A stretch of DNA of 52,691 bases from a virus (taxonomy: Duplodnaviria > Heunggongvirae > Uroviricota > Caudoviricetes): positions 1 to 52,691 of IMG/VR virus record IMGVR_UViG_2872174743_000006; one strand, written 5' to 3'. The notes below the pieces were generated by a model. That model made no database searches and was not told where the DNA came from. It worked only from the letters and a program-made list of their open reading frames with translations. Positions 996 to 33,131 of this stretch are shown here, one piece after another (the first letter of the stretch is position 1; each line of letters begins with the position of its first letter). The position numbers and the translations under genes are program-made.

Positions 996-1079
996 AGTAA
1001 TACAGTAAACTGTAGAAAAAGCCCATTAAACCTAATATAATAATAAGTTACAGAATTATCTTTACTGAATAATAGATAT

Positions 1080-1625: not shown

Positions 1626-1635
1626 TTCCGTTTAA

Positions 1636-1893: not shown

Positions 1894-2117
1894 TTAACCC
1901 CTTGTAATTCATCGCCATAATTGATTTAATTCACAAATAAAACCATAACATGGTGAAATCAATGAAAAAAAACACAGATGATGGGGCTAAAATTTACACA
2001 CCACTTACCCTAAAGCTTTATGACTGGTGGGTTTTGGGAGTATCAAATCGGCTTGCATGGGGGGTGATGCTGCCAACTTACTGATTTAGTGTATGATGGT
2101 GTTTTTGAGGTGCTCCA

Positions 2118-2393
2118 GTGGCTTCTGTTTCTATCAGCTGTCCCTCCTGTTCAGCTACTGACGGGGTGGTGCGTAACGGCAAAAGCACTGCCGGACATCA
2201 GCGCTATCTCTGCTCTCACTGCCGTAAAACATGGCAACTGCAGTTCACTTACACCGCTTCTCAACCCGGTACGCACCAGAAAATTATTGATATGGCCATG
2301 AATGGCGTTGGATGCCGGGCAACTGCACGCATTATGGGCGTTAGCCTCAACACGATTTTACGTCACTTAAAAAACTCAGGCCGCAGTCGGTAA
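2118..2393 (+). CDS. insA: IS1 InsA
   Basis: 91-aa [46 protein letters not shown]... Confidence 0.85.
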
Positions 2394-2437
2394 CCTCGCG
2401 CATACAGCCGGGCAGTGACGTCATCGTCTGCGCGGAA

Positions 2438-2815
2438 ATGGACGAACAGTGGGGATACGTCGGGGCTAAATCGCGCCAGCGCTGGCTGTTTTACGCGTAT
2501 GACAGGCTCCGGAAGACGGTTGTTGCGCACGTATTCGGTGAACGCACTATGGCGACGCTGGGGCGTCTTATGAGCTTGCTGTCACCCTTTGACGTGGTGA
2601 TATGGATGACGGATGGCTGGCCACTGTATGAATCCCGCCTGAAGGGAAAGCTGCACGTAATCAGCAAGCGATATACGCAGCGAATTGAGCGGCATAACCT
2701 GAATCTGAGGCAGCACCTGGCACGGCTGGGACGGAAGTCGCTGTCGTTCTCAAAATCGGTGGAGCTGCATGACAAAGTCATCGGGCATTATCTGAACATA
2801 AAACACTATCAATAA
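2438..2815 (+). CDS. insB: IS1 InsB frame (expressed as InsAB' by frameshift)
   Basis: [25 protein letters not shown]... downstream of insA in the -1 frame. Confidence 0.8.
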
Positions 2816-3261
2816 GTTGGAGTCATTACCTGCATGGGGATGTCCTACAAAGGAACACCTTCTTCCACACTTTCTGGAACATGTAGGTAACAACCATCTG
2901 GATATTGGTGTTGGAACTGGGTTTTACCTTACTCACGTACCTGAGAGTAGTCTGATATCTTTAATGGATTTGAACGAAGCTAGTCTGAACGCGGCATCTA
3001 CAAGGGCTGGGGAATCAAAAATTAAACATAAAATTAGCCATGATGTTTTTGAACCTTATCCCGCGGCGTTACATGGTCAATTTGATTCCATTTCCATGTT
3101 TTACCTTCTTCACTGCCTGCCTGGAAATATATCTACAAAAAGCTGTGTAATACGCAATGCGGCGCAGGCGTAAGCGTACAGCCTGAACCGTCTGGTCAGA
3201 ATCTGACGAATTAGACAAAGTGGTGTCCACCAAATAAGTAGTGGGAACCAAAGTGTCAGAT

Positions 3262-3641
3262 ATGCAGAAAAATGTGAATCCCGGCAGGCGAAAAGGCTGC
3301 CCTAATTATCCTCCCGAATTTAAACAGCAGCTCGTTGCTGCCTCCTGTGAACCCGGGATATCCATCTCAAAACTTGCTCTGAAAATGGCATTAACGCCAA
3401 TCTGTTGTTCAAATGGCGACAACAATGGCGCGAGGGAAAGCTGCTATTACCTTCTTCAGAGAGCCCCCAGCTACTTCCTGTGACTCTCGATGCAGCTGCC
3501 GAACAGCCAGAATCGCTCGCAGAGGATCCGGAAACCCTCAGTATCAGCTGTGAGGTAACGTTCCGGCACGGGACGCTCCGCTTCAATGGCAATGTCAGCG
3601 AAAAGCTCCTGACTCTGCTGATACAGGAACTGAAGCGATGA
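3262..3641 (+). pseudogene. IS66-family tnpA with apparent frameshift
   Basis: N-terminal part MQKNVNPGRRKGCPNYPPEFKQQLVAASCEPGISISKLAL and C-terminal part FKWRQQWREGKLLLP... are in different frames (ORFs 3241-3483 and 3405-3641). Confidence 0.55.
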
Positions 3642-3985
3642 TCCCGTTACCTTCCGGGACCAAAATTTGGCTGGTTGCCGGTATCACCGATATGAGAAAT
3701 GGCTTCAACGGCCTGGCGGCAAAGGTGCAGACGACGCTGAAAGACGCTCCGATGTCAGGTCACGTTTTTATCTTCCGTGGGCGTAATGGCAGTCAGGTAA
3801 AGCTCCTCTGGTCTACCGGCGATGGACTGTGTCTGCTGACCAAACGGCTGGAGCGCGGCCGCTTCGCCTGGCCGTCAGCCCGGGATGGCAAAGTGTTCCT
3901 CACACCGGCACAGCTGGCGATGCTCCTTGAAAGTATCGACTGGCGGCAGCCTAAAAGACTGCTTACGTCCCTGACTATGTTGTAA
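3638..3985 (+). CDS. IS66-family TnpB
   Basis: 115-aa ORF MIPLPSGTKIWLVAGITDMRNGFNGLAAKVQ... Confidence 0.8.
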   Translation: MIPLPSGTKIWLVAGITDMRNGFNGLAAKVQTTLKDAPMSGHVFIFRGRNGSQVKLLWSTGDGLCLLTKRLERGRFAWPSARDGKVFLTPAQLAMLLESIDWRQPKRLLTSLTML

Positions 3986-4033
3986 GCCTCTTTATCCTGG
4001 TCGACGCTGAATGAGCCTGGTAATATACCCGGT

Positions 4034-5572
4034 ATGAGCAGCTCACTTCCTGACGATATCAATGCACTGAAACGTCTCCTTGCCGAACAGGAGGCGCTGA
4101 ACCGTGCCCTGCTGGAAAAGCTGAACGAGCGTGAACGCGAAATAGACCATCTGCAGGCACAGCTGGATAAGCTGCGCCGGATGAACTTCGGCAGCCGCTC
4201 CGAAAAAGTCTCCCGTCGTATCGCACAGATGGAAGCTGACCTGAAGGCACTTCAGAAAGAAAGTGATACCCTTACCGGTCGGGTTGACGACCCGGCCGTG
4301 CAGCGCCCGCTGCGTCAAACCCGCACCCGCAAACCGTTCCCCGAATCACTCCCCCGCGATGAAAAACGGCTGCTGCCGGCAGCGTCATGCTGCCCGGAAT
4401 GTGGAGGCTCACTGAGCTATCCGGGTGAGGATGCCGCCGAACAGCTGGAGTTGATGCGCAGCGTCTTCCGGGTTATCCGGACTGTACGTGAAAAGCATGC
4501 CTGTACTCAGTGCGATGCCATCGTGCAGGCCCCCGCGCCTTCACGGCCCATCGAGCGGGGTATCGCAGGACCGGGGCTGCTGGCCCGCGTGCTGATCTCA
4601 AAGTATGCAGAGCACACCCCGCTGTACCGCCAGTCTGAAATGTACGGCCGCCAGGGCGTGGAGCTGAGTCGTTCACTGCTGTCGGGCTGGGTGGATGCAT
4701 GCTGCCGGCTACTGTCACCGCTGGAAGAAGCGCTTCAGGACTATGTGCTGACTGACGGTAAGCTCCATGCTGATGACACGCCTGTCCCGGTGCTGTTGCC
4801 AGGCAATAAGAAAACGAAGACCGGGCGGTTATGGACCTACGTTCGTGACGACCGTAACGCCGGGTCAACGCTGGCGCCGGCGGTGTGGTTCGCTTACAGC
4901 CCGGACAGAAAAGGCATCCATCCGCAGACCCATCTTGCGGGGTTCAGTGGTGTACTGCAGGCGGATGCATACGCCGGGTTCAACGAGCTGTACCGGGATG
5001 GCCGGATAACGGAAGCCGCCTGTTGGGCTCACGCCCGCCGTAAAATCCACGATGTGCACGTTCGCACCCCGTCAGCCCTGACGGAGGAAGCGCTGAAACG
5101 GATCGGCGAACTGTACGCCATCGAGGCAGAGATAAGGGGAATGACGGCGGAGCAGCGCCTTGCCGAACGTCAGTTGAAAACGAAACCGCTGCTGAAATCC
5201 CTGGAAAGCTGGCTGCGTGAAAAGATGAAAACCCTGTCGCGACACTCAGAACTGGCGAAAGCGTTCGCATACGCCCTGAACCAGTGGCCGGCGCTGACGT
5301 ACTATGCAGATGATGGCTGGGCTGAGGCGGACAATAACATCGCTGAAAATGCGTTGCGGATGGTCAGTCTGGGCCGCAAAAACTACCTGTTCTTCGGTTC
5401 GGATCATGGAGGAGAGCGGGGAGCGCTGCTGTACAGCCTGATCGGGACGTGCAAACTGAACGGAGTGGAGCCAGAAAGCTACCTCCGCTATGTACTTGAC
5501 GTCATAGCCGACTGGCCGATAAACCGGGTCGGCGAACTGCTCCCCTGGCGCGTAGCACTGCCGACTGAATAA
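4034..5572 (+). CDS. IS66-family transposase TnpC
   Basis: 512-aa ORF with N-terminal coiled coil, Cys cluster (CPECG...CTQCD) and conserved C-terminal region. Confidence 0.85.
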
Positions 5573-5609
5573 CACATCCCCGTCAATACGGTTCTTGCTG
5601 CACGCTTAC

Positions 5610-5861
5610 AACTGTTACGACAACGCTCCGATGGAAAGCTTCTGGGGAACGCTGAAAAATGAGAGCCTGAGCCACTATCGTTTTAATAACCGGGATGAAG
5701 CCATCTCAGTAATACGGGAATACATTGAGATTTTCTACAATCGTCAGCGTCGTCACTCTCGTCTGGGGAATATCTCCCCGGCAGCCTTCAGGGAAAAATA
5801 TCATCAGATGGCTGCTTAAAAAAAGAACAAATGGTAGTGTCCGCTATTGCCAGTACACCTC
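5610..5861 (+). mobile_element. IS600 (IS3 family) 3' fragment: orfB C-terminus plus right terminal repeat
   Basis: Encodes ...CYDNAPMESFWGTLKNESLSHYRFNNRDEAISVIREYIEIFYNRQRRHSRLGNISPAAFREKYHQMAA then an IR-like end at about 5861; directly abuts the IS66 element. Confidence 0.6.
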
Positions 5862-6136
5862 ATGTGGTTTGGGTTCGTAGTCGCTCTGAACTTGCGTTTC
5901 TGCTTACAGCGTAGCCTTAGCTCCTTACGAAGACGTGCCAGTCGGTCACGACCAACGATGATGCCATTCTCTGCCAGCTCCGTCTGGAGCCGCCGGGTTC
6001 CATATGTTTCGCGAGTGCGGATATGTGCCACCTTAATCTCCAGTTTTAGCCGCTCATCACTTTGTTTTCTGTCTGAGGGTTCATGCTGTACCCAGTTGTA
6101 ATAACCGCTCCTGGATACACCAAATACCTGACACAT
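5862..6136 (-). pseudogene. IS600 orfB, N-terminal part only
   Basis: MCQVFGVSRSGYYNWVQHEPSDRKQSDERLKLEIKVAHIRTRETYGTRRLQTELAENGII... then diverges after ...TTNPNH. Confidence 0.6.
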
Positions 6137-6171
6137 CGCTTCAATGGGAAATTGTTGTCGCCATTGTTCGA

Positions 6172-6474
6172 TTAACGCGTATTTTTCAGCGACTCCTGTG
6201 CAAAATACGCTGTTGCTTTTTTTAATATATCTCGCTCAAGGCGAGCTTCATTTAACGCCTTACGCAGTTGCAGAATTTCAGATTCCAGTTCAGCCACCGT
6301 GCGGGAACCAGGAGTACCGAGCCCTTTTCTGGCGGCGGTAACCCATTGTCCTAAAGTGCCTTCAGGAAGGGATAATCGGGAAGCGCCTTCACTGATCGAA
6401 AGTTGATTTTCAAGAACCGTTCTGACAGCTTCGGCTTTGAACTCTTTAGAGTAACGTTGGTTTTTTCTGCTCAT
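6172..6474 (-). CDS. IS600 OrfA
   Basis: 100-aa ORF MSRKNQRYSKEFKAEAVRTVLENQLSISEGASRLSLPEGTLGQWV..., IS3-family OrfA. Confidence 0.8.
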   Translation of the reverse strand: MSRKNQRYSKEFKAEAVRTVLENQLSISEGASRLSLPEGTLGQWVTAARKGLGTPGSRTVAELESEILQLRKALNEARLERDILKKATAYFAQESLKNTR

Positions 6475-6538
6475 TATTAGCTCCTTCTGATGCCATTCTA
6501 TTTCAGGAAGGAGTGTCCGTTAAACTCAGGCTACCTCA

Positions 6539-6587
6539 GTTCAACGGTTTTTGGATTACCTGCGACAATGTTTTTTAAATGCTGCAT
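6539..6587 (-). pseudogene. tfa: tail fibre assembly gene N-terminal remnant (about 16 codons) truncated by IS600
   Basis: ATG at 6585-6587 (minus), 5 bp after the stf stop, reads MQHLKNIVAGNPKT (lambdoid Tfa N-terminus) then runs into the IS600 end. Confidence 0.5.
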
Positions 6588-6589
6588 GA

Positions 6590-9406
6590 TTATACCTGCG
6601 ATACGTTATACCATGTTCCGTTAATTAACTTTTGTATTGGTCTGAATACTGCCGGATCATCACCATCGACTTCACCGATAATACCAAGCCCCGTGATTAC
6701 ATGGCCTGATTTTTCATACATCACGCCTTTCTTCATGGTCTGAACAACTCGTGTGCCAAGTCTGACATCTCTCACATAGCGGGAATCAAAGTTACCGTAA
6801 TCCGAGGGATTAACACGTCCCGTAATATTTATGGTTTTATTACTTTGAATGCTTCCGGAGACAAAGCGCATAACATGGACGTTATTAGCATAAACATCCA
6901 GATTACCATCGCCATTTTGTTTAAAGCCCGTATCATTATCACCCAATACAATCGAATTACCGCCAAGAGCACTGGCTGTTCCGATACCCAGTGCACCATT
7001 CAGTTGACCACCAGATAACGGCAGTGCACCAACATCTCCTGCTGAAGGTTTTCTGGTGGTGGTGTAAAATTCGGACCAGTCGGCTTCAAAACCATAACCA
7101 TCACGGGCTGAACGATAAAAAATACCGCCATTTTTATAATTAATCCGAAACTGAGCTGCAGGACAACTTCCTTCTCCCATATAAAAATGAATAATTAACG
7201 TTGATGCACCTCTAATAGTTGCGTTATAGGCTCCGCTACTCCAGTTCCATCCAACTGCTTTATCATTCGCAACGGTGCTTCCTGTTTTCCCTAAGGCAAA
7301 CGCACCAACATGACTTGCTTTTAATGTGATATCGGAGGAACCATCAAAAGCCACATTGCTTATTTTCCTGGCAGTTTTTAATTTTGCAGCTGTAGAAGCA
7401 TTGCCGGATAGTTCACCAGAAAGGCCACCGCTGAATGTTTGTCGATTAGTCCAGGTATTCGCTGTACTGAGTAACGGTATTTTCTCCCCGCTTGTGCCGA
7501 GTTCTCGTAAACCGAGGTATTCGATAACGGCAGCAACAGTCGATTTCGCAAGAATATCCCGCCCGACTTTTGTCAGGGTTGCCAGGCTGGCGACATCATT
7601 CCCCGTAAAATACGGAAACTTGTCTGCCGCAGTAGTAAGCCCGGCCAGCGCCGTCAGGGTGGCATCTTTCGGTTGCTTACCCGCAAGCGCGTTAGTCATG
7701 GTGGTCGCAACATTCGGGTCGTTTCCCAGCGCCGCCGCTAACTCGTTCAGCGTATTCAGTGCGTCAGGTGACGAATCTACAAGGGCGGCAATCGCAGCCA
7801 TAACGAAAGCCGTGCTTGCGATTTGGGTATTATTCGTTCCCTGTCGCGCAGTTGGTGTTGTTGGCGTTCCGGTCAGTGCAGGACTATTTAAGGGCGCTTT
7901 CTTGTTCGTTTCACCCATTACCGCCTTAACCGCTTTTGGCGTTGCCGCCAGTGACTCGGAAGTGCTGTTGGTCGCACTGCTGAGCTGTACTATCCCCTTT
8001 TTCGTCGTGCTCGCATCCTCCAGCGCCACGGCGGATGCAATATCCTCTGCCCGTTTTGCTGCTGTCTCGGCGCGCGTTGCCGCGGATTCCGCCGTACTTT
8101 TGCTCTGAGCTGCCGCCGTCGCACTACCAGCTGCCTCTGATGCTTTCATTGTTGCTGTCGTGGCACTACCTTTCGCTGCTGACGCTTGTCTGGTCGCCTC
8201 ATCTTTTGAAGCAGACGCAGATGATGCCGATGACGCCGCTGAACTGGCTGACGATGCGGCTGCCGCCTTAGAGGAAGCAGCATTGTCTGCTGAAGTCTTT
8301 GCATTTGTTTCAGAGGTTTTTGCTGCAGAAGCAGACCTCGCTGCTGCAGTGGCTTGCTCAGTGGCTTTGCCAGCCTTCGTTGTGGCTGTTGAAGCGGATG
8401 ATGCGGCGCTTTCTGCCGATTTTCCGGCGGCGCTAGCACTGGCTGAGGCCTGCCCGGCACTTGTTGACGCGGCACTGGCAGACGACGCGGCCGCTGTTTT
8501 TGAGCCTGCCGCAGCTGAGGCGCTCTGTCCCGCTGCTGTTTCAGAAGACTTAGCGTTCGTCTCGGACGTTTTTGCCGCCTTCGCGGAATTTCCTGCCACC
8601 GTTGCCGAGGAAGCTGCACTACTGGCACTTGATGATGCATTCGTTTCTGAAGATTTCGCTGCCTCTTTTGAAGCCGCCGCACCCCGTGCCGAGGTGGCAG
8701 CTTCTGACGCCTTCGTGGTCGCTGTGGATGCAGAAGTGGCTGCCGATTTTTGTGATGCTGCGGCATTCGTTTCTGACGTTTTCGCGGCACTGGCGCTGGT
8801 AGCTGCCGCGCTTTTTGATGACTCTGCAGCAGCAGCACTTTTTGCTGCTTCACGGGCCTTTGTCGATGCCGTTCCTGCGCTGGAAGACGCTGACTGAGCC
8901 GACGACGCGGCCTGTCCGGCTGACGTGCTTGCGGCACGTGCTGAGGCTGCAGCATCGGTTGCATGAGTTGCCGCCTCGCTGGCTGATGCACTGGCATCGC
9001 TGGCTGATTTTTTCGCGGCTGCCGTATTCTGTGCAACCGCGGAGGCGTTACGTGACACCTCTTCCACCATCTGCTCAAAGCGGCGCAGTGCCTCCGGTCG
9101 GACATCATCCTCCGTCATGGCACCGAGAAAATCATTTAGCGTACCTGGTCTGGAACCTTCATAGACGGTAATGGTCCCGGCATGTGAAGGCGGAAAACCT
9201 TCAACCAGCAGGGTGACGCTGTACTGACCATGCTCAACATCCATGCTGTAACGTCCGGCTTCATCCGGATTTTCAGAGGCCACCGTGTTCACCACCACCG
9301 TGCTGCTGGTTCGTCTGGCCTTCAGCACAATGGTGCAGTTCTGTACTGGTTTTCCTGTGCCATCTTTAAGCACGCCAGAAATTTTTACTGTCATACTTTC
9401 CACCAA
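6590..9406 (-). CDS. stf: side tail fibre protein
   Basis: 938-aa ORF: conserved N-terminal domain (MTVKISGVLKDGTGKPVQNCTI...), long Ala/Ser-rich repeat region, globular C-terminal domain; follows lom as in lambda. Confidence 0.8.
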   Translation of the reverse strand: MVESMTVKISGVLKDGTGKPVQNCTIVLKARRTSSTVVVNTVASENPDEAGRYSMDVEHGQYSVTLLVEGFPPSHAGTITVYEGSRPGTLNDFLGAMTEDDVRPEALRRFEQMVEEVSRNASAVAQNTAAAKKSASDASASASEAATHATDAAASARAASTSAGQAASSAQSASSSAGTASTKAREAAKSAAAAESSKSAAATSASAAKTSETNAAASQKSAATSASTATTKASEAATSARGAAASKEAAKSSETNASSSASSAASSATVAGNSAKAAKTSETNAKSSETAAGQSASAAAGSKTAAASSASAASTSAGQASASASAAGKSAESAASSASTATTKAGKATEQATAAARSASAAKTSETNAKTSADNAASSKAAAASSASSAASSASSASASKDEATRQASAAKGSATTATMKASEAAGSATAAAQSKSTAESAATRAETAAKRAEDIASAVALEDASTTKKGIVQLSSATNSTSESLAATPKAVKAVMGETNKKAPLNSPALTGTPTTPTARQGTNNTQIASTAFVMAAIAALVDSSPDALNTLNELAAALGNDPNVATTMTNALAGKQPKDATLTALAGLTTAADKFPYFTGNDVASLATLTKVGRDILAKSTVAAVIEYLGLRELGTSGEKIPLLSTANTWTNRQTFSGGLSGELSGNASTAAKLKTARKISNVAFDGSSDITLKASHVGAFALGKTGSTVANDKAVGWNWSSGAYNATIRGASTLIIHFYMGEGSCPAAQFRINYKNGGIFYRSARDGYGFEADWSEFYTTTRKPSAGDVGALPLSGGQLNGALGIGTASALGGNSIVLGDNDTGFKQNGDGNLDVYANNVHVMRFVSGSIQSNKTINITGRVNPSDYGNFDSRYVRDVRLGTRVVQTMKKGVMYEKSGHVITGLGIIGEVDGDDPAVFRPIQKLINGTWYNVSQV
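8000..9055. repeat. low-complexity Ala/Ser-rich coding repeats inside stf
   Basis: Protein motif AAKTSETNA three times plus related units; several frames on both strands are open across this stretch in the ORF track. Confidence 0.5.
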
Positions 9407-9544
9407 TAAAAAAAGCCCGCAGCAGTGACGCCACGGGCTTCAGGACAGTGTAACTTTACGTTTCCTCAAACGCAGTTCACCCCATAAGGTGGATGAACCT
9501 GCGTATCATAACAATATTTACAGAAGATAAATCGGCGTCTGTTG

Positions 9545-10144
9545 TCAGAAACGGTATCCGATACCAACAATAAATGCATCCGTTCGCCAGTCGCCACTAC
9601 CGGAACCTTCATAAGCAAGGTCAACGGCCACGGATTCGGTCGGGTTAAACTGCACGCCAGCCCCCCACGCCAGAGAGGTATTGCTGTGGCGACCGTCATC
9701 ACTTCCGGTCAGCACGTCGTGCGTTTTCCCCTTGTTGTCAGTTACGCGGAGATAATCCCCGGAGAAAGTCGACACACGGCTGTAAGCCACACCCGCCATC
9801 GCATACGCGCTGAACCATTCATTCACGCGTACAGACGGCCCCGCCATCACACTGAACCAGCGGTTACGCACGGAATCTTCATGCCAGCGGGTATCGCTGT
9901 AGCGCGTTTTTTGCTCATCCTCAGCATTGGCATAACTGAAGGACGTAATCAGCCCCAGCGCGTCCGTAAACTCATAACGGTATTTCACGTTAATCCCGTT
10001 CAGATCATCACTACCGGGAACGTTCGTCGAGGCATGGAGATACCCCGCGCTCAGCGTGGACTGATGTTCTGCTGCACTCGCTGGCGTAGCAGCGGCGACC
10101 TGCCAGACTACTGCGGACAAAATAACAGCACATAATTTACGCAT
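9545..10144 (-). CDS. lom: Lom/Ail-family outer membrane protein
   Basis: 199-aa ORF with signal peptide, ending ...FIVGIGYRF, located between J and stf. Confidence 0.85.
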   Translation of the reverse strand: MRKLCAVILSAVVWQVAAATPASAAEHQSTLSAGYLHASTNVPGSDDLNGINVKYRYEFTDALGLITSFSYANAEDEQKTRYSDTRWHEDSVRNRWFSVMAGPSVRVNEWFSAYAMAGVAYSRVSTFSGDYLRVTDNKGKTHDVLTGSDDGRHSNTSLAWGAGVQFNPTESVAVDLAYEGSGSGDWRTDAFIVGIGYRF

Positions 10145-10211
10145 AATTACCTCTCGCTTTTCTGCAATAAAAAAGGCGCCATTTCTGGCGCCCGTATCTG
10201 GGTTATAAAAT

Positions 10212-13200
10212 TCAGCTAATCGTGATGCCTGCAGTGGCTTTCTTCATCACCACAACCAGCAAATCGCTGATACTTGCTGTGGGATACCAGTTATTTACCA
10301 GCCATGCTGACACCGAAAACTCCAGTGTCATGTGACCGTGACCGGCAGGCATATCAATAACACCACTGTAAATCAGCGTATTATCCAGCGCGGTACGGTT
10401 ATAAATTTCAGCACCGTTTTTCCGCACTATCAGACGGCATGAGGAGTAAATATCAGTATGCTCTTTCTCATGTTTAGCGCCGCTGAATGCCACCGCCGGA
10501 ATAACAATCTGCCGGTCAAACGGCTGATCGTCATAAACCCTGACGGTAATGGTTCCTGATGGCCACCGCTCCGGTGCACGGGAGTCCCGGGGGAAAGCTT
10601 TGCCCACTGTTTTAACGAGATCGCCTTCAATCTGGTTCGCGGACAATTTTCCCAGAACCCGACAGTTCTCGTTAATCGTGACGTTGTTGAGCGTCCCGGA
10701 GTTCGCATTCACGTTACCGCTGATATCGGCATTTTTCGCCGTCAGCCGCCCGTCCGGTGTCAGGGAAAATGCCGGAGGATTACCGCCGCTGGTAATGGTG
10801 GGAGCCGTCAGATATTTCAGGAACACTTCATTCATAAATATCTGATCGCCCTGACCAACAAACATCGGCTTTGTGTTGCCATTCGCAGGATTAATCATCG
10901 CAATCCTGTCTGCCGCCAGCAGCACCTGACTCTGCATTCCTGCTGGCGTATTCTCAATACCGGCATCGATACCCGCAATATAAAGGCGTCCGTCCTGCAT
11001 CTGCTGCAGTTTCACGGCCCACATGCTGTTCAGGTTATTATTTGTATCAACCTGAACTTTCTGTATCTGCTGGATTGCCGCACTCTGATTTTCCAGTTTT
11101 TTATTGACGGTCTGCGTGATTTCATTGCTGACATTCGTAATGGACGTCCTGATTTCAGCCAGGTCCGGCGCAAGCTGACCGTTATCAATCTGCGTCCACA
11201 GCTCCTGGGCCAGATGTGTTTTCCCGATTTCTCCTTTGAAGAAATCCAGGTAACCTTCCGCATCATCGCTCGCCCGACCGACAGCCTCCACGAATGCCGA
11301 TTTGCCAACAGTATTCACACTGCGGATATAAAAATAATAATCATGGCCCGGTTTGATATTGATACTGGCAGCTATCCAGTACAGCGCCGAGCCAAGATAG
11401 CGGGCTGCGGTTTCAACCTGCCTGATATCCGCAATCCGCTTTTCCGAGAACCAGAACTCAAACTGTACCGTCGGGTAATAAACGGCAAGATGCGGCGTGG
11501 CGGTTATCTGAAAATAGCCCGGCGTCAGTTCAATGGTGGCGGGTTTTGCTGGCGCGTTAATCCGGAAGGTGGTGGTGGCCGGTTCGCCCTGCTGGCCATA
11601 ACTGTTAATTGCCCTGACTGTCAGGGTGTATTCCCCGAGCGGCAGACCACTGAAACGATGCTCTGTATCCGCAGTGATAGCGGTGGTCACCAGACGGCTG
11701 TCTTCTCCGCTTCCGCTGGTCAGTCGCAGACTGAAGCGCCCCCCCTTCACCACCCGCGGCGTGTCCCATTTCGCCTGTGCCAGATACTGGCCGTCAGCTG
11801 CGCTCACCTCCACCGTCAGGTGCTGCACTGCCGGTGGGATGACGCTGTTCAGGGAGCCTGACTGCGGCTCAAAGCGGGCACCGTTATCCACGATGGCTTC
11901 TTTTTCCGGTACGTGCTGCACCGCCGTGATGGCAAAGGTGCCGTCCGTGTTTTCCCGGACGGAGACACAGCGGAACAGGCGACGGCGCAGTGACGGCAGG
12001 GAGAGTCCCCACACCCCGTATGTCTCCACACCATCAGGCAGGGTACTGACCTGTATCCGGTCCGGCGCGGGGTGTGCGGTGATGTCCACACTCACCGGCT
12101 TACCGCTGCCGTTAATCAGGTTCACCGCCGATGTACCTGTCTCCGGCAGGGTAACCTCACGGTCCAGCGTCAGGGTGCGGGTGGCAGCATCAATGGACAG
12201 GACACGTCCGCCGGTCATAGTCCCGGCATAGTCGTTATCACAGATTTCAATAATGTCACCCGGTGTGTGACGCAGCCCCTGTGACCCGAGCGTGAAGTCC
12301 ACCGTCTGCGTTTCCAGCAGTCCGGTCTTTATCACCCACAGACCTGCACGGTGAGCCTGACCGCGGCAGGTACAGCCAAACGCATCCATCTTCAGCAGGT
12401 TGCGTCCGTAGCGCAGTATGGCTTCCGGGTCTTCCACCAGTTCCGTGGAGGTCTGCCAGCCGTTCTGCGGGTCGGTGTAATTCACCTCCACCGCCGTGTG
12501 CCGGTCCTTCAGGGCACTGAAGCTGTAGCGGAATCCCACGCCGTTATCATCCACCACCACATCGCTGTTGGTGTACGGCCACACCACATCCGACGGGCGG
12601 TCCTGAACGAACGTCAGCGTCTGACCGTTCCATACCGGCATACAGCGCATCGCAGAGCAGAAATCACTGAGAACGTCCCACGCCTTACGCTGTTGTGCCA
12701 GGTACGCATTAAAGGTCATCCGCGGCTCGGTCCCCCCGAAACCATCCGGGACCGTCTGGTCGCAGTACTGCCCGATGGCATACAGCGCCCACTTGTCCAC
12801 ATCCGCCGCCCCCAGACGTTTTCCCATGCCGTAGCGCGGGTGAGTCAGCATGTCCCACAGGCACCAGGCCGGGTTGTTGCTGTATGCCGGTTTCAGACTG
12901 CCGTCCCAGATACCACTGTACGTGCGTTTTTCCGGGTCATAGTTTGACGGCACCTGGATGATGCGACCGCGGATATGGTAGTTCACCGTCATCTGCTGGC
13001 CGCCGAACTGCTCCGCATCCACCTGCAGCCCCACAATGGCCGTGTTCGGGTAGCACTGTTTCACATCGATGATTTCGGTGTATGACGACCACAGCGTCTT
13101 ATTCTGCAGCTGGTCCGTGGTGCTGTCCGCCGTCTCCCTGACCATCCGGATGTTAAAGGGCCGGGGAGGCAGATTATCCAGAATCACCGAGGCCAGGAAC

Positions 13201-13685
13201 TGTGAGGTGGTCTTGCCGTTAATGGTGACGTCCTTTTCCGTCACCCAGCGGCCATTACGCTGTAACTGAATCAGAATCCGGACAGAGGAAGGATTACGGT
13301 CGCCCTTTGACGTGGTCTGCACCAGTGACTGCACCCCGAAGGTAACCCGCAGGCGGTCAATGTTCGCGGACGTAATGGTGCGCGTCACCGGTTTTGCCTT
13401 CGTCACTTCCACGCCCAGTCCGGTTTCAGAGCCGGAGGACTCAAAGCCTTCCGGTGGTGTCTGCTCCTGCTCCCCGGCGCGCCAGACCGCCGTCACACCG
13501 TGTATCACGGGATTGCCGTCCGTGTCCGTCAGTGGGGTTTTGTTCACCAGAATACTCTGCAGTCCCTTCACCGGACCTTCTATCGGTCCCTCACCAATCG
13601 CATCAATCACACTCATCATCTGCGTGGATTTGAGATTATCCTTCGCCTCACGAGGAGTGTGTGCCTTACCGCCACCTTTTCCCAT
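10212..13685 (-). CDS. J: host specificity / central tail fibre protein J
   Basis: 1157-aa ORF collinear with lambda J; follows I. Confidence 0.9.
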
Positions 13686-13890
13686 ACAGCCTTCCCCTGA
13701 ATAAATTAACCGCCACTTGCCATTCCGTACAGAAGTCGGATATCCTTCGCCCGAAAAGCATGAAACACATTTCTGCCATGCTAAAGAGAAACCCCGGTAT
13801 CAGCAGATACCGGGGTTTTCTTTCATGCCCACCGATAATCCTGTTGGTTAAAACCGGTAATGGCATAAAAATTCTGAATATCTTCACATT

Positions 13891-13918
13891 TTCACACACT
13901 GACTGTGGCGCTTATAAT
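13891..13918 (+). promoter_or_regulatory. sigma70-like promoter (TTCACA, 16 nt, TATAAT)
   Basis: -35 TTCACA at 13891-13896, 16-nt spacer, perfect -10 TATAAT at 13913-13918, in the I-J intergenic region on the strand opposite the late genes. Confidence 0.35.
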
Positions 13919-13924
13919 TTCGCT

Positions 13925-14023
13925 GCGTTAGTGTTTTTTTGCCCGAGTAACAAAAACAACTCCTTAACATTGATCTTCATTTGTCTGTCCCCGCAGCTCC
14001 GCGATCACTGCGGGATTTTTTTA
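13925..14023 (+). ncRNA. candidate small RNA, about 100 nt, antisense to the I-J intergenic region
   Basis: Promoter-like element upstream, no ATG in the interval, ends at a GC-rich hairpin plus T-run. Confidence 0.3.
13989..14023 (+). terminator. rho-independent terminator
   Basis: Stem CCCCGCAG / CTGCGGG with 11-nt loop followed by ATTTTTTTA. Confidence 0.5.
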
Positions 14024-14027
14024 TGTT

Positions 14028-14708
14028 TTATCCCTGTCGCCCGATAACCACGACCTTTCCGCCCCCGCCTTCATCACGGGTGCTGATGTCCTGGGATATA
14101 CGGCGGGAGCCAACCAGCATTTCCCCGTAAGGCACCGGCATCGGGTTCCCCTGGGCAATCATGTTATCCAGCGAGGAAAAGTACGTGTTCTGTCTGCCGT
14201 TATCCGTTGCGCGGTAATCCGGTGTTTTTGCCTTCGGGGCCAGCATCTGGGCCACACCGCCCAGAATCATGCTGGCTCCAAGTGAAAACAGCATCGTGGT
14301 GGCAGAAAAACCACCGGCTGCCAGGGCTGAACCCCATAACGCCATTGATGCCCCGGCAGTGAAGAAAGAGCCCACGATGGCTGCCGCCCCCAACACAATC
14401 TGCAGTCCACCCTTTCCGGCCCCGGCCAGTCGCGGCACAATATGGATGACCGTTCCCTCACCCAGCTGTTCGTGAAGACGGGCGTACACCGCCTCCGGTG
14501 CCGTGTCATAACCGGCAATACGTATCTGGTACCAGCCTTCGTTCATCTGACGGCGAAAGCCCGGCACCTGTAACGACAGCGCCCGGATGGCTTCCGCTGC
14601 CGTGTTCACATACAGGCTGAGGCGGCGGCCAAATCGTTGTAAATCCCCGTGAAGGCAGATGCGTGCCAGTGGCGGTGACGCCAGACAGAATGCGTTCGTC
14701 GTTGCCAT
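14028..14708 (-). CDS. I: tail assembly protein I
   Basis: 226-aa ORF; LQRFGRR, Gly/Ala-rich membrane segment and ...YGEMLVGSR match lambda I; overlaps K. Confidence 0.85.
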   Translation of the reverse strand: MATTNAFCLASPPLARICLHGDLQRFGRRLSLYVNTAAEAIRALSLQVPGFRRQMNEGWYQIRIAGYDTAPEAVYARLHEQLGEGTVIHIVPRLAGAGKGGLQIVLGAAAIVGSFFTAGASMALWGSALAAGGFSATTMLFSLGASMILGGVAQMLAPKAKTPDYRATDNGRQNTYFSSLDNMIAQGNPMPVPYGEMLVGSRRISQDISTRDEGGGGKVVVIGRQG

Positions 14709-15349: not shown

Positions 15350-15359
15350 AAACCGGGAT

Positions 15360-16058: not shown

Positions 16059-16387
16059 CAGTTCACCACCTGCTTAAACTCCGCGCTGAACTCAACGCGC
16101 AACATCCCGACCCGCGCAGACCACCCGGCACAGGTCACCTTTATCTGCCGGTATGCATAGGGTGGCTTCCACAAAAATGCCTTCCAGCCACCGTGCTCTG
16201 CCAGGAACGCTTCCAGATGCCGGGCCTCCTCCCGGGTCACGGAAAGCGTCACCCTGTATGTTTTCAGGTCAGCATTCAGCCCTGCCGCCATACGCTGTGA
16301 GTACCCGTCACCAAAACGCACTTCACGCACCGATGGCTGCGAGTTCACCTCCATATCCGGCTTCACTTTCCAGCGAAAGGTTTTCAT
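16058..16387 (-). CDS. M: minor tail protein M
   Basis: 109-aa ORF at the lambda M position with M-like sequence. Confidence 0.85.
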   Translation of the reverse strand: MKTFRWKVKPDMEVNSQPSVREVRFGDGYSQRMAAGLNADLKTYRVTLSVTREEARHLEAFLAEHGGWKAFLWKPPYAYRQIKVTCAGWSARVGMLRVEFSAEFKQVVN

Positions 16388-18957
16388 CCACCGCTCCCTG
16401 ATAACATACCGCCATCACGCAACTGCAGCCGGAGTTCATCCTGTGCCCCCTTGCGGGCCATCTCATACACCGCTTTCATCAGCTGCGGCCCTGCCCGCCC
16501 GTTGGGGCCGTCGTTCTGAATCACCACGTGATTGTTCTGATTAAAATTAATGCCTTCCGCCCGCCGCATCTGCGCCGGACTTCCGGCACCGCCGACATAA
16601 CCACCTTCCGCATAGCCCCGCATCAGGCGGTACAGATTGCCGACACCAATCCGGCTGGTCGCCTCCTTCGTGAAGACAAACTCCCCGCGATGAACAATCC
16701 CCGCAGGTTCATATTTACCCCCCGTCCCCGTAAATCCCCCGGTCGCGAAATGGAAGTTCGCCGCCGCAGCCTGAATGGCTGTACCGCCTGACGCGGATGC
16801 GCCGCCACCAACAGCCCCGCCAATGGCGCTGCCGATACTCCCGACTATCCCCACCATCGCCTGCTTCAGAAAAATCTCTGTCAGCATGGACAGCACAGAA
16901 CGGGTGAAACCACGCCAGTTCTGTTCGCTGCCGGTCAGCATCGCTGCCATATTCTGTACAATACCGTCAAAGGTCTGCGTGGCCGCGTTTTTAACCTGCG
17001 AAAAACTGTCCGTCGCACTTTCCGCCCACTCGCCCCAGCCGGACTTCATCCCGGCCATCCAGCTTCCACGAAGCTGCTCCTCCGCAGACCAGGTGTTCTT
17101 CAGTGCAGATGTGGCCTTCGCCAGCGCAGCCGGATTATCACCGTACACCTCACGAAGGCGCTGCTCTTCCGACTCCCGCTGCGCCTGACGGTCGGTGAGT
17201 CCGCGTGCTTTTGCGCTGATTGCCGCCTGCTTCGCGCTCTGCTGCTGTTCAAACCGCGCCGCCTGCTGTGCCAGCTCATTCAGCCGTTTCTGGTGTTCAA
17301 TCTTGTCGCCCAGCTCAGCCAGCTGGCGTTTGTACTCCAGCGTTTCTTTCTCATGGGCCAGCAGGGATTTTTCCTGCTCAGATAACTGCCGTTTCGTGGC
17401 GGCCTCTTTCAGGACCACATACTGATTTTCCGCTTCCCATAAATCCCGGCGCTGCTGGCTGATTTTCTCATTCACACCGCTGTGTTTTTCCAGCGTCCTG
17501 AGCTCGGTTTCAAGCGCCAGCATGGCTGCATGCGCCCGGTCTTCCTGGCGCTCACCGGCAGACACCTTCACACCTGACGGCTTTTTCAGCGTCGATTCAT
17601 AATCCTTTTTTGCCGACGCCATCAGCGTGTTGTAATCCGCCTGCAGGATTTTTCCGTCTTTCAGGGCCTTATTCAGCTCTTTCTGACGGGCGGTATATTT
17701 ATCCAGCGGCGTCTGCAGGCGCTCATACGCCTTCTGCGCCTCTCCGGTATACTTCAGCTGTGACGCCTCACGCTCAGCCCGGTCCCTTGCCGCCAGTTCA
17801 CCGGCTTTTTCCATATCCGACTGCAGCGTGGCCGCTGCCAGACCCAGACGGGCATTTTCCCGGTCATCCCATGCCCCCTGAAGGTTCGCACGAAAAGAGG
17901 AGGTCTTTCCCCGGCGCTGGCTCCGGCTCTGGTACCACTGCCATTTTTTATCCGCCTCATCAAATGCCTTCTGCGCACTGGCGAGCATATCCGCTGAGGA
18001 TTCAGGACGACCGATATCCAGAATGGCATCCCACATCGATTTGAATGCCTTCCCTGTTTTATCCGCCCAGGTCTCCAGTGTTCCCATGTTTTCTTTCAGG
18101 CGACGGGTCTGCTCATCAAAGCCTTTCGTGGCGATATCGTTCGCCGCCTGCAATGCCCCGGCCTCGTCTCCGGAACGCTGCAGCTGTGCAACATACGCAA
18201 TCTGCTCTGCCGTCACGTTACGGAACTGGCGCGCCATCGCCATCAGTCCCGACGTCGGGTCAGTGGTCAGCTTCCCGAAGGCTTCAGCGACTTTATCCAC
18301 CTCCACACCGGATGCAGACGCAAAACGCGCGACACTCTGGTTGATGGCATCAAACTGTTCACCACCACGCACACCGGCATTCACCAGGGCTGCCAGTGAC
18401 TCTCTCGCCTGGTTAAACGTCAGCCCTGCTGCCTGCCCGGCTCTTGAGAGAGTCAGCATACGATCGGCAGTCAGTCCGGACTGATTACCGGAAAGAACCA
18501 GGGTTTTATTAAACGCTGAAAGCGTGGAATCTCCCTGGTACCAGGCGTACACCAGCGCACCTGTCGCCACCGCCAGCGAGGTGACTCCGACCATCGGCAG
18601 GGTGATCGCACCGGCGAGCCCCCTGAACATGGGGATCATCCCGCCGAAGGAGTCCTTCACCTGACCGCCCTGTTGCAGCAGGATCAGCCAGGGATTCTGA
18701 CCACCGGCAAGCTGCGTGGCGATATCCGTAAACTGTGCGGGCAGGGTTCGCATGGCCGCTTTATACTGCCCGACGGAAATCCCGGCTTTTTGTGCAGCCA
18801 GCGCCTGGCGGCTCAGGCCCTGTTCAACAGCACTGGCGGTTTTTCTGGCGTCGGTATCCAGACCTGAAAAATGACGCCTTACCCGGCTCATCTGCTCATC
18901 GAAACGGACAGCATCCAGACTCAGGTCAATAACAAGATCACCAACCGGCTGGGACAT
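16384..18957 (-). CDS. H: tail tape measure protein H
   Basis: 857-aa ORF, coiled-coil rich with C-terminal Gly-rich region, at the lambda H position. Confidence 0.85.
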   Translation of the reverse strand: MSQPVGDLVIDLSLDAVRFDEQMSRVRRHFSGLDTDARKTASAVEQGLSRQALAAQKAGISVGQYKAAMRTLPAQFTDIATQLAGGQNPWLILLQQGGQVKDSFGGMIPMFRGLAGAITLPMVGVTSLAVATGALVYAWYQGDSTLSAFNKTLVLSGNQSGLTADRMLTLSRAGQAAGLTFNQARESLAALVNAGVRGGEQFDAINQSVARFASASGVEVDKVAEAFGKLTTDPTSGLMAMARQFRNVTAEQIAYVAQLQRSGDEAGALQAANDIATKGFDEQTRRLKENMGTLETWADKTGKAFKSMWDAILDIGRPESSADMLASAQKAFDEADKKWQWYQSRSQRRGKTSSFRANLQGAWDDRENARLGLAAATLQSDMEKAGELAARDRAEREASQLKYTGEAQKAYERLQTPLDKYTARQKELNKALKDGKILQADYNTLMASAKKDYESTLKKPSGVKVSAGERQEDRAHAAMLALETELRTLEKHSGVNEKISQQRRDLWEAENQYVVLKEAATKRQLSEQEKSLLAHEKETLEYKRQLAELGDKIEHQKRLNELAQQAARFEQQQSAKQAAISAKARGLTDRQAQRESEEQRLREVYGDNPAALAKATSALKNTWSAEEQLRGSWMAGMKSGWGEWAESATDSFSQVKNAATQTFDGIVQNMAAMLTGSEQNWRGFTRSVLSMLTEIFLKQAMVGIVGSIGSAIGGAVGGGASASGGTAIQAAAANFHFATGGFTGTGGKYEPAGIVHRGEFVFTKEATSRIGVGNLYRLMRGYAEGGYVGGAGSPAQMRRAEGINFNQNNHVVIQNDGPNGRAGPQLMKAVYEMARKGAQDELRLQLRDGGMLSGSGG

Positions 18958-19402: not shown

Positions 19403-19791
19403 GCAGAAAAATCATCATCAGTCAGCGTGTTATTTTTCGCCACTTCAGTAATATCAGTATCCGGACGAACAGCTTCGATCATCCCGGACAGGCACAACAC
19501 CACGTCTTCCGCCCGGGCAATGGCATCGGCAGGCCAGGTGGTGAGCACTTCCTGCTCTATCTTCATCACGGCCTCATTCATTGACGGTGACTGCGTTTTC
19601 TGTGGATGGTTATGCCACAGGGACATCGCCACCAGAAACGCGCCGGTTCTGACGAGATCTTCCACGCTTACCTGCAGGTTGCCGCAGGATTCTGCCTGTT
19701 CTGCACGCCGTTTCAGGAGGGCAAGATGCTCGATACGCTGCAGCGCCCGCTTCAGTAACGGTGACTTCAGCCACTGCGGCGAACTGACCAT
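19378..19791 (-). CDS. G: tail assembly chaperone G (start uncertain)
   Basis: Matches lambda G from [10 protein letters not shown] onward; the first 16 codons are encoded inside the 3' end of V in another frame and do not match lambda G. Confidence 0.65.
19396..19402 (-). promoter_or_regulatory. programmed -1 ribosomal frameshift slippery heptamer G GGA AAG
   Basis: GGGAAAG on the minus strand in the G zero frame (GCG GGA AAG), 5 codons before the G stop; the T frame opens from it. Confidence 0.6.
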
Positions 19792-30676: not shown

Positions 30677-30974
30677 TTCACCACCAGCGTATCTGACCGA
30701 TGAAATAACCGGAGGCCATAATCACAAACACCAGCCAGATAAGAATGAACTTCCAGGTGGATAATTTTTCAGCCATCACTCGAATCTCCCGAATCAGTTT
30801 GCTAAAATCAAACACACTTTCTCCTTTGACTTTTCCAGAGTCAGGAAACACAAAACCCCGCTTGCAGCCAACAAACGGGTTTTTTACTTTTATTCACTTA
30901 GTTTTTGTCAGTTCGCAGGATTTCGTGTTATCCGTCCGTGTAAGCAAACCGCATTTTTCAGCAAAATATTCTGC

Positions 30975-31508
30975 TTATCTGTCGATACCCCAGCACGCCA
31001 GCGCGCTCTCCTGGTCACGACGGGATACCTGACCGTAGCAGTTGTTTGAACGAATACGGCAGTCTCTGCCACCGTCCTTAATCCACCAGCGAATCGCCTC
31101 ACACGCTCCCCTGCGATCACCTGCATTAATTCGTTTATAAAACGTCGACGGGAAACACTTACCGGGACCAATGTTGTACGGACAGAATGACGCGATCCCC
31201 GCTTTCTGGGGTTCGCTCAATGGCACTCTGATGTTTTTCTCCACCCATGCCAGCGCCTTATCACGCTCAATGGCGTTAACCCGGTCGCATTTTTCCTTCG
31301 ACAACTTCATGCCCGGAACGACAGGTTTGCCATCCACCAGGATGGCACCGCGGCAGATGGTCCAGATACCCGCGCCATCACGGTATGCCGTGGTGTGGTT
31401 ACCTTCCTTTTCATCCAGAAACTGGTCGAGAATGTCAGGCGCAGGCGCACCAGCGGCAATCAGCGCCAGAACGGCAGCCGACAGGCCGTATTTGATTTTG
31501 GTGTTCAT
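30975..31508 (-). CDS. R: SAR endolysin (lysozyme)
   Basis: 177-aa ORF with N-terminal signal-anchor-release segment MNTKIKYGLSAAVLALIAAGAPAPD and lysozyme-like body. Confidence 0.8.
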   Translation of the reverse strand: MNTKIKYGLSAAVLALIAAGAPAPDILDQFLDEKEGNHTTAYRDGAGIWTICRGAILVDGKPVVPGMKLSKEKCDRVNAIERDKALAWVEKNIRVPLSEPQKAGIASFCPYNIGPGKCFPSTFYKRINAGDRRGACEAIRWWIKDGGRDCRIRSNNCYGQVSRRDQESALACWGIDR

Positions 31509-31711
31509 GGATATATTAAATATTCAGCCGCTGTCCCTGGCCCACTAAATACGCACTTTAAGATAAGTCAGCCCCGGATGAAGCCAGTAAGCCGGCACTT
31601 TTTTAAAGGGTGGAGTATTAAAATCACGAAGAAGAGCCTCCCGCACAATTGCATCCGGTAATGCTGCCAACTTACTGATTTAGTGTATGATGGTGATTTT
31701 AAGGTGCTTGC

Positions 31712-31987
31712 GTGGCTTCCATTTCCATCAGATGTCCTTCCTGCTCCGCTACTGAAGGCGTGGTGCGTAACGGCAAAAGCACTGCCGGACATCAGCGCTA
31801 TCTCTGCTCTCATTGCCGTAAAACATGGCAACTACAGTTCACTTACACCGCCTCTCAGCCCGGTACGCACCAGAAAATCATTGATATGGCCATGAATGGC
31901 GTCGGATGTCGCGCCAGTGCACGCATTATGGGCGTTGGCCTCAACACGGTTTTACGTCACTTAAAAAACTCAGGCCGCAGTCGGTAA
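31712..31987 (+). CDS. insA: IS1 InsA
   Basis: 91-aa [42 protein letters not shown]... Confidence 0.85.
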
Positions 31988-32031
31988 CCTCGCGCATACA
32001 ACCGGGCAGTGATGTGATTGTCTGCGCTGAA

Positions 32032-32409
32032 ATGGACGAACAGTGGGGCTACGTCGGTGCTAAATCACGTCAGCGCTGGCTGTTTTACGCGTATGACAGG
32101 ATACGGAGGACGGTTGTGGCGCACGTCTTCGGTGAACGCACTCTGGCCACACTGGAGCGTCTTCTGAGCCTGCTGTCGGCCTTTGAGGTCGTGGTATGGA
32201 TGACGGATGGCTGGCCGCTGTATGAATCACGCCTGAAGGGAAAGCTGCACGTTATCAGCAAGCGTTACACTCAGCGCATTGAGCGACATAATCTGAATCT
32301 GAGACAACATCTGGCAAGGCTGGGACGGAAGTCACTGTCGTTCTCAAAATCGGTGGAGCTGCATGACAAGGTCATCGGGCATTATCTGAACATAAAACAC
32401 TATCAGTAA
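32032..32409 (+). CDS. insB: IS1 InsB frame
   Basis: [22 protein letters not shown]...; Met chosen inside ORF 31906-32409. Confidence 0.8.
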
Positions 32410-33131
32410 GTTGGAGTCATTACCATTGCATCCTTATCAGCACCACTGGCCAGCGCTTCAATCTCAGCAGCTATCTGCAGATATCCCATGCAACGACCAA
32501 TGCACTTCATCAGCCCCTGCTTTTTATTGTTCTTCAGGTAATCAATGGCAAATTCAATGAGCGCCTCACTATGCTGGTGCGATGGCGGTGTTAATTTCCC
32601 ATTTTCTGAGATGGTTATTTTCCCGCCATCTCCGTATACAACAAAGGATGGCCGGTTACACTCCCATTCCTGATCTTTATCAGGTGCAGACGCAATAAAA
32701 TAACGTTTATTTCCTTCCTCTCCGGCACTTTTAACCGTAATGGAGTACTCAGACTGCAGACAAGACGCCTCTTTTTCTGACCGCAGTGTTGACGGCGGCA
32801 TCTTCAGAGAACAAGTAATTATTCCCGGTAGTTTTCCTCTGTAGGTTATCAACACATCCTGCGCCTCTAAAATGATGGGGCGCTTTTCCTGCAACGGTTC
32901 GTTCCCTTCACATAACCCGGCAGCAACATCCATGAAAAACTGCTTCGCCTGCTTTTTCGCCTCCGCTTCGTAAAACTCCAGCTTGGCACCTTCAGTACGG
33001 TCAAGACTAATCGCCACATATGGCAACAACAGTGACGGATACCCACCAATTTCCAGTGCCACAGTAACAGTAATCTTATCCGGGTAATTATTTATCCCTT
33101 TAACAACCAGTTCGTATTTTTTCTTCATCAC
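32403..33131 (-). pseudogene. unknown lysis-cassette gene (native about 270 aa) with 3' end displaced by IS1
   Basis: Last 7 codons lie inside IS1; joining across the target duplication restores an in-frame tail ...ADKDAIVREALLRDFNTPPFKKVPAYWLHPGLTYLKVRI ending near 31553; no recognisable family. Confidence 0.45.

Follow-up and report, generated by a model that had tools for sequence, protein, structure and literature searches.

Two very probably independent IS1 insertions of different isoforms bracket the intact head-tail module of a lambda-like prophage

Insertion sequences (IS) of the IS1, IS3, IS66, and other families have expanded in Shigella, where they drive rearrangement and gene loss (PMC8072062). 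IS-invaded, defective lambdoid prophages are familiar in Shigella dysenteriae, an example being the Shiga toxin (Stx) prophage of S. dysenteriae type 1, a 13.5-kb remnant with IS600 that lies between sapC and ychK (PMC7819885). We analyzed the DNA of IMG/VR record IMGVR_UViG_2872174743_000006 (52,691 nucleotides, hereafter the window), a lambda-like prophage with two copies of IS1, here called A and B, on either side of its packaging, head, and tail genes. Two IS1 copies in 50 kb of S. dysenteriae DNA are expected because of the IS1 expansion in Shigella (PMC8072062), and the pair is an already known kind of feature. The window is one instance of IS-mediated genome reduction in Shigella, with IS1 present twice and accompanied by an IS66-family element, IS2, IS911, and IS3-family fragments. 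Like the type 1 remnant (PMC7819885), it is an IS-invaded lambdoid prophage of what is probably the same species. The type 1 remnant is an end state with most structural genes lost and it carries stx, whereas the window prophage lies between btsS and mlrA, is stx-free, and has open head and tail reading frames.

The closest named elements are IS1SD and IS1F. Copies A and B have in common with them the length of 768 bp, terminal inverted repeats of the form GGT(G/A)ATG..., the insA and insB genes with an A6C frameshift site, and 9-bp target duplications; they differ by a few point changes, and insB of copy B is open whereas K-12 insB7 is annotated as a pseudogene. The pair also resembles Tn9, with two direct IS1 copies whose compatible ends surround a segment and whose outer ends would in principle be jointly usable. 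In contrast to Tn9, the 30.4-kb unit here has no common outer duplication, encloses a native module in its native order, and is bounded by two isoforms. The copies, their target sites, and the genes beside them are as follows.

1636-1893: fragment (85 aa) of a tail-fiber-assembly gene, adjoining copy A
1950-3169, plus strand: putative class I S-adenosylmethionine (SAM)-dependent methyltransferase cargo gene, interrupted by copy A at about codon 38 and truncated at 3170 by the IS66-family element
2054-2062 and 2831-2839: target duplication of copy A, TGCATGGGG, perfect over 9 bp
2063-2830, plus strand: IS1 copy A, IS1SD-type (insA 2118-2393; TTAAAAAAC near 2368; insB frame to 2815)
30209-30676, minus strand: Rz spanin (PF03245), inside the IS1 interval
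30975-31508, minus strand: endolysin (lysozyme; PF00959), inside the IS1 interval
31545-33128, minus strand: DUF1327/YdfR-family gene, interrupted by copy B at codon 232 of the 268 in its reconstructed frame
31648-31656 and 32425-32433: target duplication of copy B, ATTGCATCC, perfect over 9 bp
31657-32424, plus strand: IS1 copy B, IS1F-type (insA 31712-31987; insB 31906-32409)
33133-33348, minus strand: P21-type class II holin S (PF04971, E = 3.4e-32; a 71-aa gene in locus L004), outside the IS1 interval

Both by reading the sequence and by comparing the two stretches, each copy is 768 bp long and lies on the plus strand; the gap between them is 28,826 bp and their start-to-start spacing is 29,594 bp. 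A repeat search of the whole window found the pair to be the only long repeat family in its 52.7 kb. The left termini are GGTGATGC in copy A and GGTAATGC in copy B, and the imperfect terminal inverted repeats of about 23 bp match at 18/23 positions in A and 20/23 in B. The insA and insB frames are open in both copies, each with the A6C frameshift motif TTAAAAAAC, and PF03811, PF12759, and PF03400 match the identical IS1 genes in related loci (L004, L008, and L020). Both copies thus have the length, inverted repeats, frameshift site and domains, 9-bp duplication, and match to a named isoform that characterize IS1. A perfect 9-bp repeat exactly at the ends of an element has a chance expectation of about 4e-6 per element, and both target duplications are therefore real. 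The original prediction had placed two direct copies at these coordinates, with perfect 9-bp duplications and differing left termini, and it was exact to the base. The two duplications, TGCATGGGG and ATTGCATCC, have the core TGCAT in common, a coincidence with an expectation of about 2% that is probably due to chance.

Comparison of the copies with each other showed 700/768 identical positions (91.1%), with 68 substitutions scattered along the element and no indels. Elements with the RefSeq annotation 'IS1-like element IS1SD family transposase' are 99.7% identical to copy A, the genes of which match the Pfam domains Zn_ribbon_InsA, HTH_Tnp_IS1, and DDE_Tnp_IS1 in locus L020. Copy B is identical to IS1F of E. 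coli K-12 MG1655 at 763/768 positions (99.3%), and many E. coli chromosomes hold counterparts that are 100% identical to it. Judged by identity to these named elements, A and B are different IS1 isoforms, IS1SD-type and IS1F-type, which bears out the earlier view of them as distinct variants. For annotators this is a caution that IS1 copies within one genome may differ by 9%.

The uninterrupted alleles of both target sites were reconstructed by excising each IS1 along with one of its two duplicated 9-mers, which restored the reading frame. At site A, the IS1-excised sequence is 98.7% identical over 719 bp to E. coli 09-02E (locus L001), ungapped across the junction. There, an intact methyltransferase gene is annotated at 1980-2648 and contains a single TGCATGGGG. 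The reconstructed open reading frame (ORF) gives Pfam matches to Methyltransf_12/25/11 that fall just under the gathering cut-offs, so that the identification of the gene as a SAM methyltransferase rests mainly on identity to the annotated gene of 09-02E. The tail-fiber end of the prophage holds two cargo genes opposite in strand to the late genes, this one and an acyltransferase gene; the exact protein of the latter (1080-1625) is listed in 786 blocks of a public index. The cargo methyltransferase gene has been destroyed by IS1 and the IS66-family element jointly.

At site B, the IS1-free allele is found in E. coli FDAARGOS_401 (L022), with a single ACTGCATCC and no gap across the junction. 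The interrupted gene was assigned to DUF1327 by PF07041 (E = 7.6e-43), and the split point corresponds to aa 251 in the stop-to-stop frame. Copy B separates the holin gene from the endolysin gene by its position within this DUF1327/YdfR gene, the N-terminal part of which reads into IS1 to give a 241-aa fusion ORF (32403-33128). The exact DUF1327::IS1 fusion protein occurs on 17 public contigs. The identical 241-aa protein is also encoded on a draft contig (L009, LPSX01000243.1 of GCA_001906425.1) where the upstream prophage genes differ (RusA, a 273-aa antiterminator, a pmrD-like gene, and a 618-aa esterase) and DNA identity is only about 90%. Either the insertion may have moved between paralogous prophages by recombination, or this contig may represent a second prophage of the lineage.

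Separate duplications accompany the two copies, the outer flanks do not match, and E. coli relatives carry uninterrupted alleles with a single 9-mer; for these reasons the insertions are independent. An IS1SD-type copy entered the cargo methyltransferase gene and an IS1F-type copy the DUF1327/YdfR gene, each generating a 9-bp duplication. We consider it very probable, on sequence grounds, that A and B are ordinary simple transpositions of two isoforms, in agreement with the original prediction of independent simple insertions, which the duplications, the empty-site alleles, and the colinearity of the interval with an intact prophage all support. A Tn9-like composite, in which both IS1 copies and the 28.8 kb between them arrived as one unit, would account for two direct copies with nearly identical terminal repeats. 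Its outer flanks should then agree, and they do not (TGCATGGGG to the left of A, ATTGCATCC to the right of B); moreover, the interval is not foreign, being colinear with IS1-free E. coli prophages and continuous in gene order with the DNA outside it, and the copies are of different isoforms. The target duplications and synteny thus rule out insertion as a unit as a past event, and we give it next to no chance. An equally negligible chance is left for one or both copies being assembly artefacts. IS1 is highly repeated in Shigella and some related assemblies have many frameshifts (L005 and L007), but the same junctions with identical IS1 sequences recur in independent chromosome-scale assemblies (seven for site B and nine for site A), and for site B also in draft contigs, which rules this explanation out.

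The same geometry would allow a deletion. The copies are in direct orientation, which had a 50% chance of arising, and they are a formal substrate for RecA-dependent exchange, with a deletion spanning 29,594 bp. It would remove the methyltransferase remnant, the IS66/IS3 debris, the tail and head genes, terminase, Rz, and endolysin, as well as the DNA upstream of Nu1, the expected location of cos; int, Q, the holin, and the genes for immunity and replication would stay. A deletion of the entire head-tail module plus the lysis genes had been foreseen for such an exchange. This is correct for the head-tail genes, endolysin, and Rz, which lie inside the interval; the holin gene (33133-33348) is found beyond copy B on its right side, outside the interval, and would not be removed.

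In bacteria, RecA-dependent exchange requires a strictly identical stretch of up to about 30 bp, and MutS/MutL editing aborts an exchange that runs on from there into diverged DNA (PMC8918686). Copies A and B have six identical runs of at least 30 bp in common (53, 51, 35, 35, 35, and 30 bp, the longest being 53 bp). Their shared orientation and these blocks thus suffice for the minimal processing segment, but the copies are not nearly identical (68/768 mismatches). Divergence of roughly 10% would cut recombination by one to several orders of magnitude. Exchange between A and B is expected to be rare because of the 9% divergence and because the identity blocks, none longer than 53 bp, are each flanked by mismatches; mismatch-repair editing should strongly suppress it. 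Low identity between the copies had been named as grounds for abandoning the deletion idea, and at 91.1% they are homeologous rather than nearly identical, with six blocks of at least 30 bp that still permit initiation. Both the recombination rate and the phenotype of the deletion product are predictions made from these properties.

We searched relatives for the deletion product, the signature of which would be the left flank GGCTTGCATGGGG, a single hybrid IS1, and the right flank ATTGCATCCTTATCAGC. A query joining 1 kb left of copy A to 1 kb right of copy B had no match at ≥80% coverage among 5,426 complete E. coli genomes (0/5,426), a weak negative given that the lineage is not in this collection. 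Species-representative genomes, among which the lineage is likewise absent, gave no exact match to the junction on the right of B or to that on the left of A. The hybrid single-IS1 junction was found in no chromosome-scale assembly listed for marker proteins beside sites A or B. One such marker, the DUF1327::IS1 fusion protein, which the deletion would keep, is present at chromosome scale (longest contig over 1 Mb) in nine index blocks, and every chromosome-scale place listed for it has endolysin, Rz, and terminase beyond copy B. Another, the 85-aa tail-fiber-assembly fragment beside copy A, is on chromosome-scale contigs, by the same 1-Mb threshold, in 14 index blocks; its listed places have copy A, the methyltransferase remnant, and the IS66-family element in all but CP045784. 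At the base level, the IS1 at site A is purely A-type and continues into the usual right flank in nine of ten chromosome-scale assemblies, and the IS1 at site B is purely B-type and is preceded by the usual left flank in seven of seven. Both copies are present in five assemblies (CP026807, CP045784, CP026834, CP026823, and PSSQ01000001), where the distance between the outer flanks is 30,362-30,807 bp; a deletion product would have 768 bp. The A/B arrangement is inherited intact across several strains. The check that had been proposed, for a deletion variant in which one IS1 lies between hybrid flanks, gave none in the related genomes examined, and the deletion idea is geometrically valid but without supporting evidence. 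A full-text search with the window-related accession numbers returned no paper, and they are not listed in the supplements of PMC8072062.

The exceptional site A is that of CP045784 (S. dysenteriae CFSAN029786, a name taken from the neighboring plasmid record). Its IS1 is a clean single-crossover chimera, A-type on the left and B-type on the right, with the first 42 diagnostic sites A-type and the last 26 B-type. After the chimera come the 7-bp spacer CACGGTT and a second chimeric IS1 that is ended at about base 390 by the IS66-family element, and the 343-bp methyltransferase remnant is missing. The same junction of a B end, CACGGTT, and an A start recurs at the IS1 near yehQ in this assembly. 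The arrangement was seen in no other assembly compared, and its positions are as follows.

L017 4145-5687 (CP045784.1, L017/L027): IS1-CACGGTT-IS1 structure
L017 10984-12148 (CP045784.1, L017/L027): IS1-CACGGTT-IS1 structure

Copy B and the structural module of CP045784 are intact. A single crossover in nested IS1 copies and the integration of an IS1 circle were considered as origins of the chimeras and rejected, since neither reproduces the observed copies; no single event that we tried leads to them from the ancestral state. A real exchange is no more likely than a misassembly among IS1 copies. We consider it unlikely that the chimera is real, such that IS1SD- and IS1F-types, 9% divergent as they are, exchange sequence in vivo or dimerize in tandem. 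If it were, deletion by exchange between A and B would be a live possibility, at the very site that the original prediction had flagged.

Several points weigh against the account of two stable, independently acquired copies. The CP045784 chimera, if real, shows the isoforms exchanging sequence in this lineage. The failure to find the deletion is based on some dozen chromosome-scale assemblies; drafts are interrupted at IS1, and a consensus sequence hides rare variants of a subpopulation, so that the junction would be invisible in either. Finally, the host would be S. dysenteriae ATCC 49347 according to the adjacent accession CP026835, a plasmid of that strain, and the species and strain names thus come from a neighboring accession rather than from the chromosome record.

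Loss of the module has occurred in this lineage once among the assemblies seen, in CP034935, with its break at the end of the IS66-family element and not at IS1. The locus in CP034935, a related chromosome of S. dysenteriae type (L034, 4347810-4360067), matches window positions 1-5609, including IS1 copy A, and the match ends exactly at the IS66-family right inverted repeat. It is followed by DNA that begins in the middle of preA and continues with mglC and mglA in K-12 order and orientation (compared with L036). The simplest reading of these sequences is a colinear deletion of about 68 kb, comprising the remaining prophage DNA (about 47 kb) and the chromosomal region from mlrA to preA (about 21 kb). 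A second, independent case is E. coli CM127658 (L021, a 5.04-Mb chromosome), where the prophage at the btsS/mlrA site is reduced to the tail-fiber end and the Ea22...int end, which meet at a 307-aa IS5-family transposase gene, with the structural, lysis, and replication region lost.

These cases bear on how the module is lost. That exchange between A and B regularly yields module-less derivatives and is the main route of prophage decay is, in our view, quite improbable. The direct orientation, identical blocks that exceed the minimal processing segment (PMC8918686), the chimeric copies in CP045784, and the high rearrangement rate of IS-rich Shigella genomes (PMC8072062) would favor it, but the copies are only 91.1% identical, the junction is absent from the 5,426 E. 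coli genomes and from the chromosome-scale assemblies bearing the markers, five assemblies keep both copies about 30.4 kb apart, and the loss in CP034935 ends at the IS66-family element. We lean instead toward loss by transposase-driven or other IS-associated events, as a somewhat better than even proposition. Candidates are adjacent deletion by intramolecular transposition of IS1 or IS66 and recombination between identical copies of other IS elements. IS1-promoted adjacent deletion is an established process. In addition to the CP034935 break and the IS5-family gene in the CM127658 remnant, the missing target duplications at the IS66-family element and IS2 are a sign of earlier IS-associated rearrangement. 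The CP034935 product is compatible with adjacent deletion and with recombination between two IS66 copies, and an inversion or translocation could give the same junction when the whole chromosome is not considered. Loss by such events is compatible with, and not opposed to, the independent insertion of A and B. IS-associated decay of this prophage is real, and the sequence evidence points to elements other than the A/B pair. The locus illustrates how IS expansion peppers a still-complete Shigella prophage and how such prophages are later reduced: an obvious IS1 pair stands unrecombined in several strains, while the lone module loss of the lineage lies at a nearby IS66-family end. For annotators, the two IS1 junctions are stable lineage markers.

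Other insertions show continuing IS activity in the lineage. Near yehQ/yehR, about 5.3 kb to the left of the window, an IS1F-type copy is nested in an IS1SD-type copy (A 1-537, B 1-768, A 529-768) with the duplication GACGTGGTG.

L012 4143-5687: nested IS1F-in-IS1SD, same orientation as copy A
L020 4144-5688: nested IS1F-in-IS1SD, same orientation as copy A

Four assemblies (CP026807, CP026834, CP026823, and CP034935) have the nested element, and three (PSSQ01000001, CP026840, and CP026828) lack it. Since it is nested in an IS1SD copy in some strains only, IS1F-type must have been transposing recently in the lineage. The tail-fiber gene has received further insertions, namely IS2 in PSSQ01000001, an IS911-like element in CP026840, and an IS1F-type element in CP026828, and the last of these, a new insertion, also shows IS1F-type activity.

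The prophage was identified by megablast against complete E. coli genomes and phages as lambda-like, with its late genes on the minus strand. No complete E. coli genome covered ≥80% of either half of the window by megablast. Exact-protein matches placed the window in chromosome CP026834, to which it is 100% identical in the two stretches compared, 1-11625 and 22403-43128. The chromosomal flanks are btsS (yehU) and mlrA (yehV); yehV is the site used by the Stx1 prophage of O157:H7. From ORFs, Pfam matches, and the annotated L001 locus, the gene order is lambdoid: int-xis, early genes, cI-like repressor, replication genes, Q, holin-endolysin-Rz, terminase-head-tail, and tail fiber beside the attachment site. 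The structural genes were named from the ORF list, Pfam matches on the identical loci L004 and L020, and colinearity with the annotated E. coli 09-02E prophage. Apart from the genes given above, the features are the following.

515-763: dinI-like gene
1080-1625, strand opposite the late genes: hexapeptide-repeat acyltransferase, intact
6590-29433, minus strand: lambda-like packaging/head/tail module, complete, all ORFs open
6590-9394, minus strand: side tail fiber
9545-10144, minus strand: Lom
10212-13685, minus strand: J
16384-18957, minus strand: tape measure
22241-23269, minus strand: major capsid
23327-23674, minus strand: decoration protein
23711-25216, minus strand: S49 protease/scaffold
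25206-26798, minus strand: portal
26985-28913, minus strand: terminase A
28885-29433, minus strand: Nu1
33499-35121: SASA/DUF6645 esterase
35892-36141: three tRNAs
36191-37240: DNA methyltransferase
39190-39582: Q
between Q and the repressor: replication genes
46363-47094: cI-like repressor
51405-52691: integrase

The other IS elements in the window are listed below.

3170-5609, plus strand: IS66-family element, 2.44 kb (tnpA remnant, tnpB 3638-3985, tnpC 4034-5572)
5610-6532: IS3-family fragments (C-terminal end of an rve transposase at 5610-5819, plus strand; orfA at 6172-6474 and partial orfB, minus strand)
37847-39177: IS2, full length, 1,331 bp, separating Q from the late region and lying some 12 bp past the stop codon of Q
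about 47443-48692: IS911, 1,250 bp, between the repressor region and the early-left genes

The IS66-family element matches Pfam TnpB_IS66 and DDE_Tnp_IS66; tnpB and tnpC are intact and tnpA is disrupted in this strain. Its inverted repeats (GTAAGCGTAC...) lie at 3170-3191 and 5588-5609. No 8-bp target duplication was found around it, the flanks being the methyltransferase gene on the left and an IS3-family transposase fragment on the right. The IS3-family fragments were recognized by HTH_Tnp_1, HTH_21, and rve matches on the same stretch in L012 and L033. They sit where relatives have a tail-fiber assembly gene (present in L001), which is gone in the window. The element at about 47443-48692 we take to be IS911 from its OrfA/OrfB frames and TGAAGTGG... 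ends. IS2 lacks a 5-bp target duplication (GATAC versus GTAAC) and may separate Q from its late promoter. Identity to strains of the CP026807 group shifts at the left end of IS2, being 98.8% to the left of this point and 99.9% to the right, and sequence comparison suggests recombination with a second, paralogous prophage at this element.

Window 33499-37240 has the architecture of Shiga-toxin phages, with a DNA methyltransferase, tRNAs, DUF1737, and a NanS-p-like SASA esterase upstream of the holin. Its tRNAs are Arg-tct, Arg-tcg, and one with a CAT anticodon, which is annotated as tRNA-Ile in the E. coli relative. Neither stx nor any other ORF was called between the tRNAs and the DUF1737/esterase genes, where stxAB would lie. 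A second lambdoid prophage is present in the same genomes (L038, CP026807 827695-837928; L046, CP026834 766381-776614), in which the DUF1737 and methyltransferase genes are identical, the DUF1327 gene is short (114 aa), and there are IS3-family insertions. This prophage is the likely partner for the mosaic identity pattern in the late region of the window.

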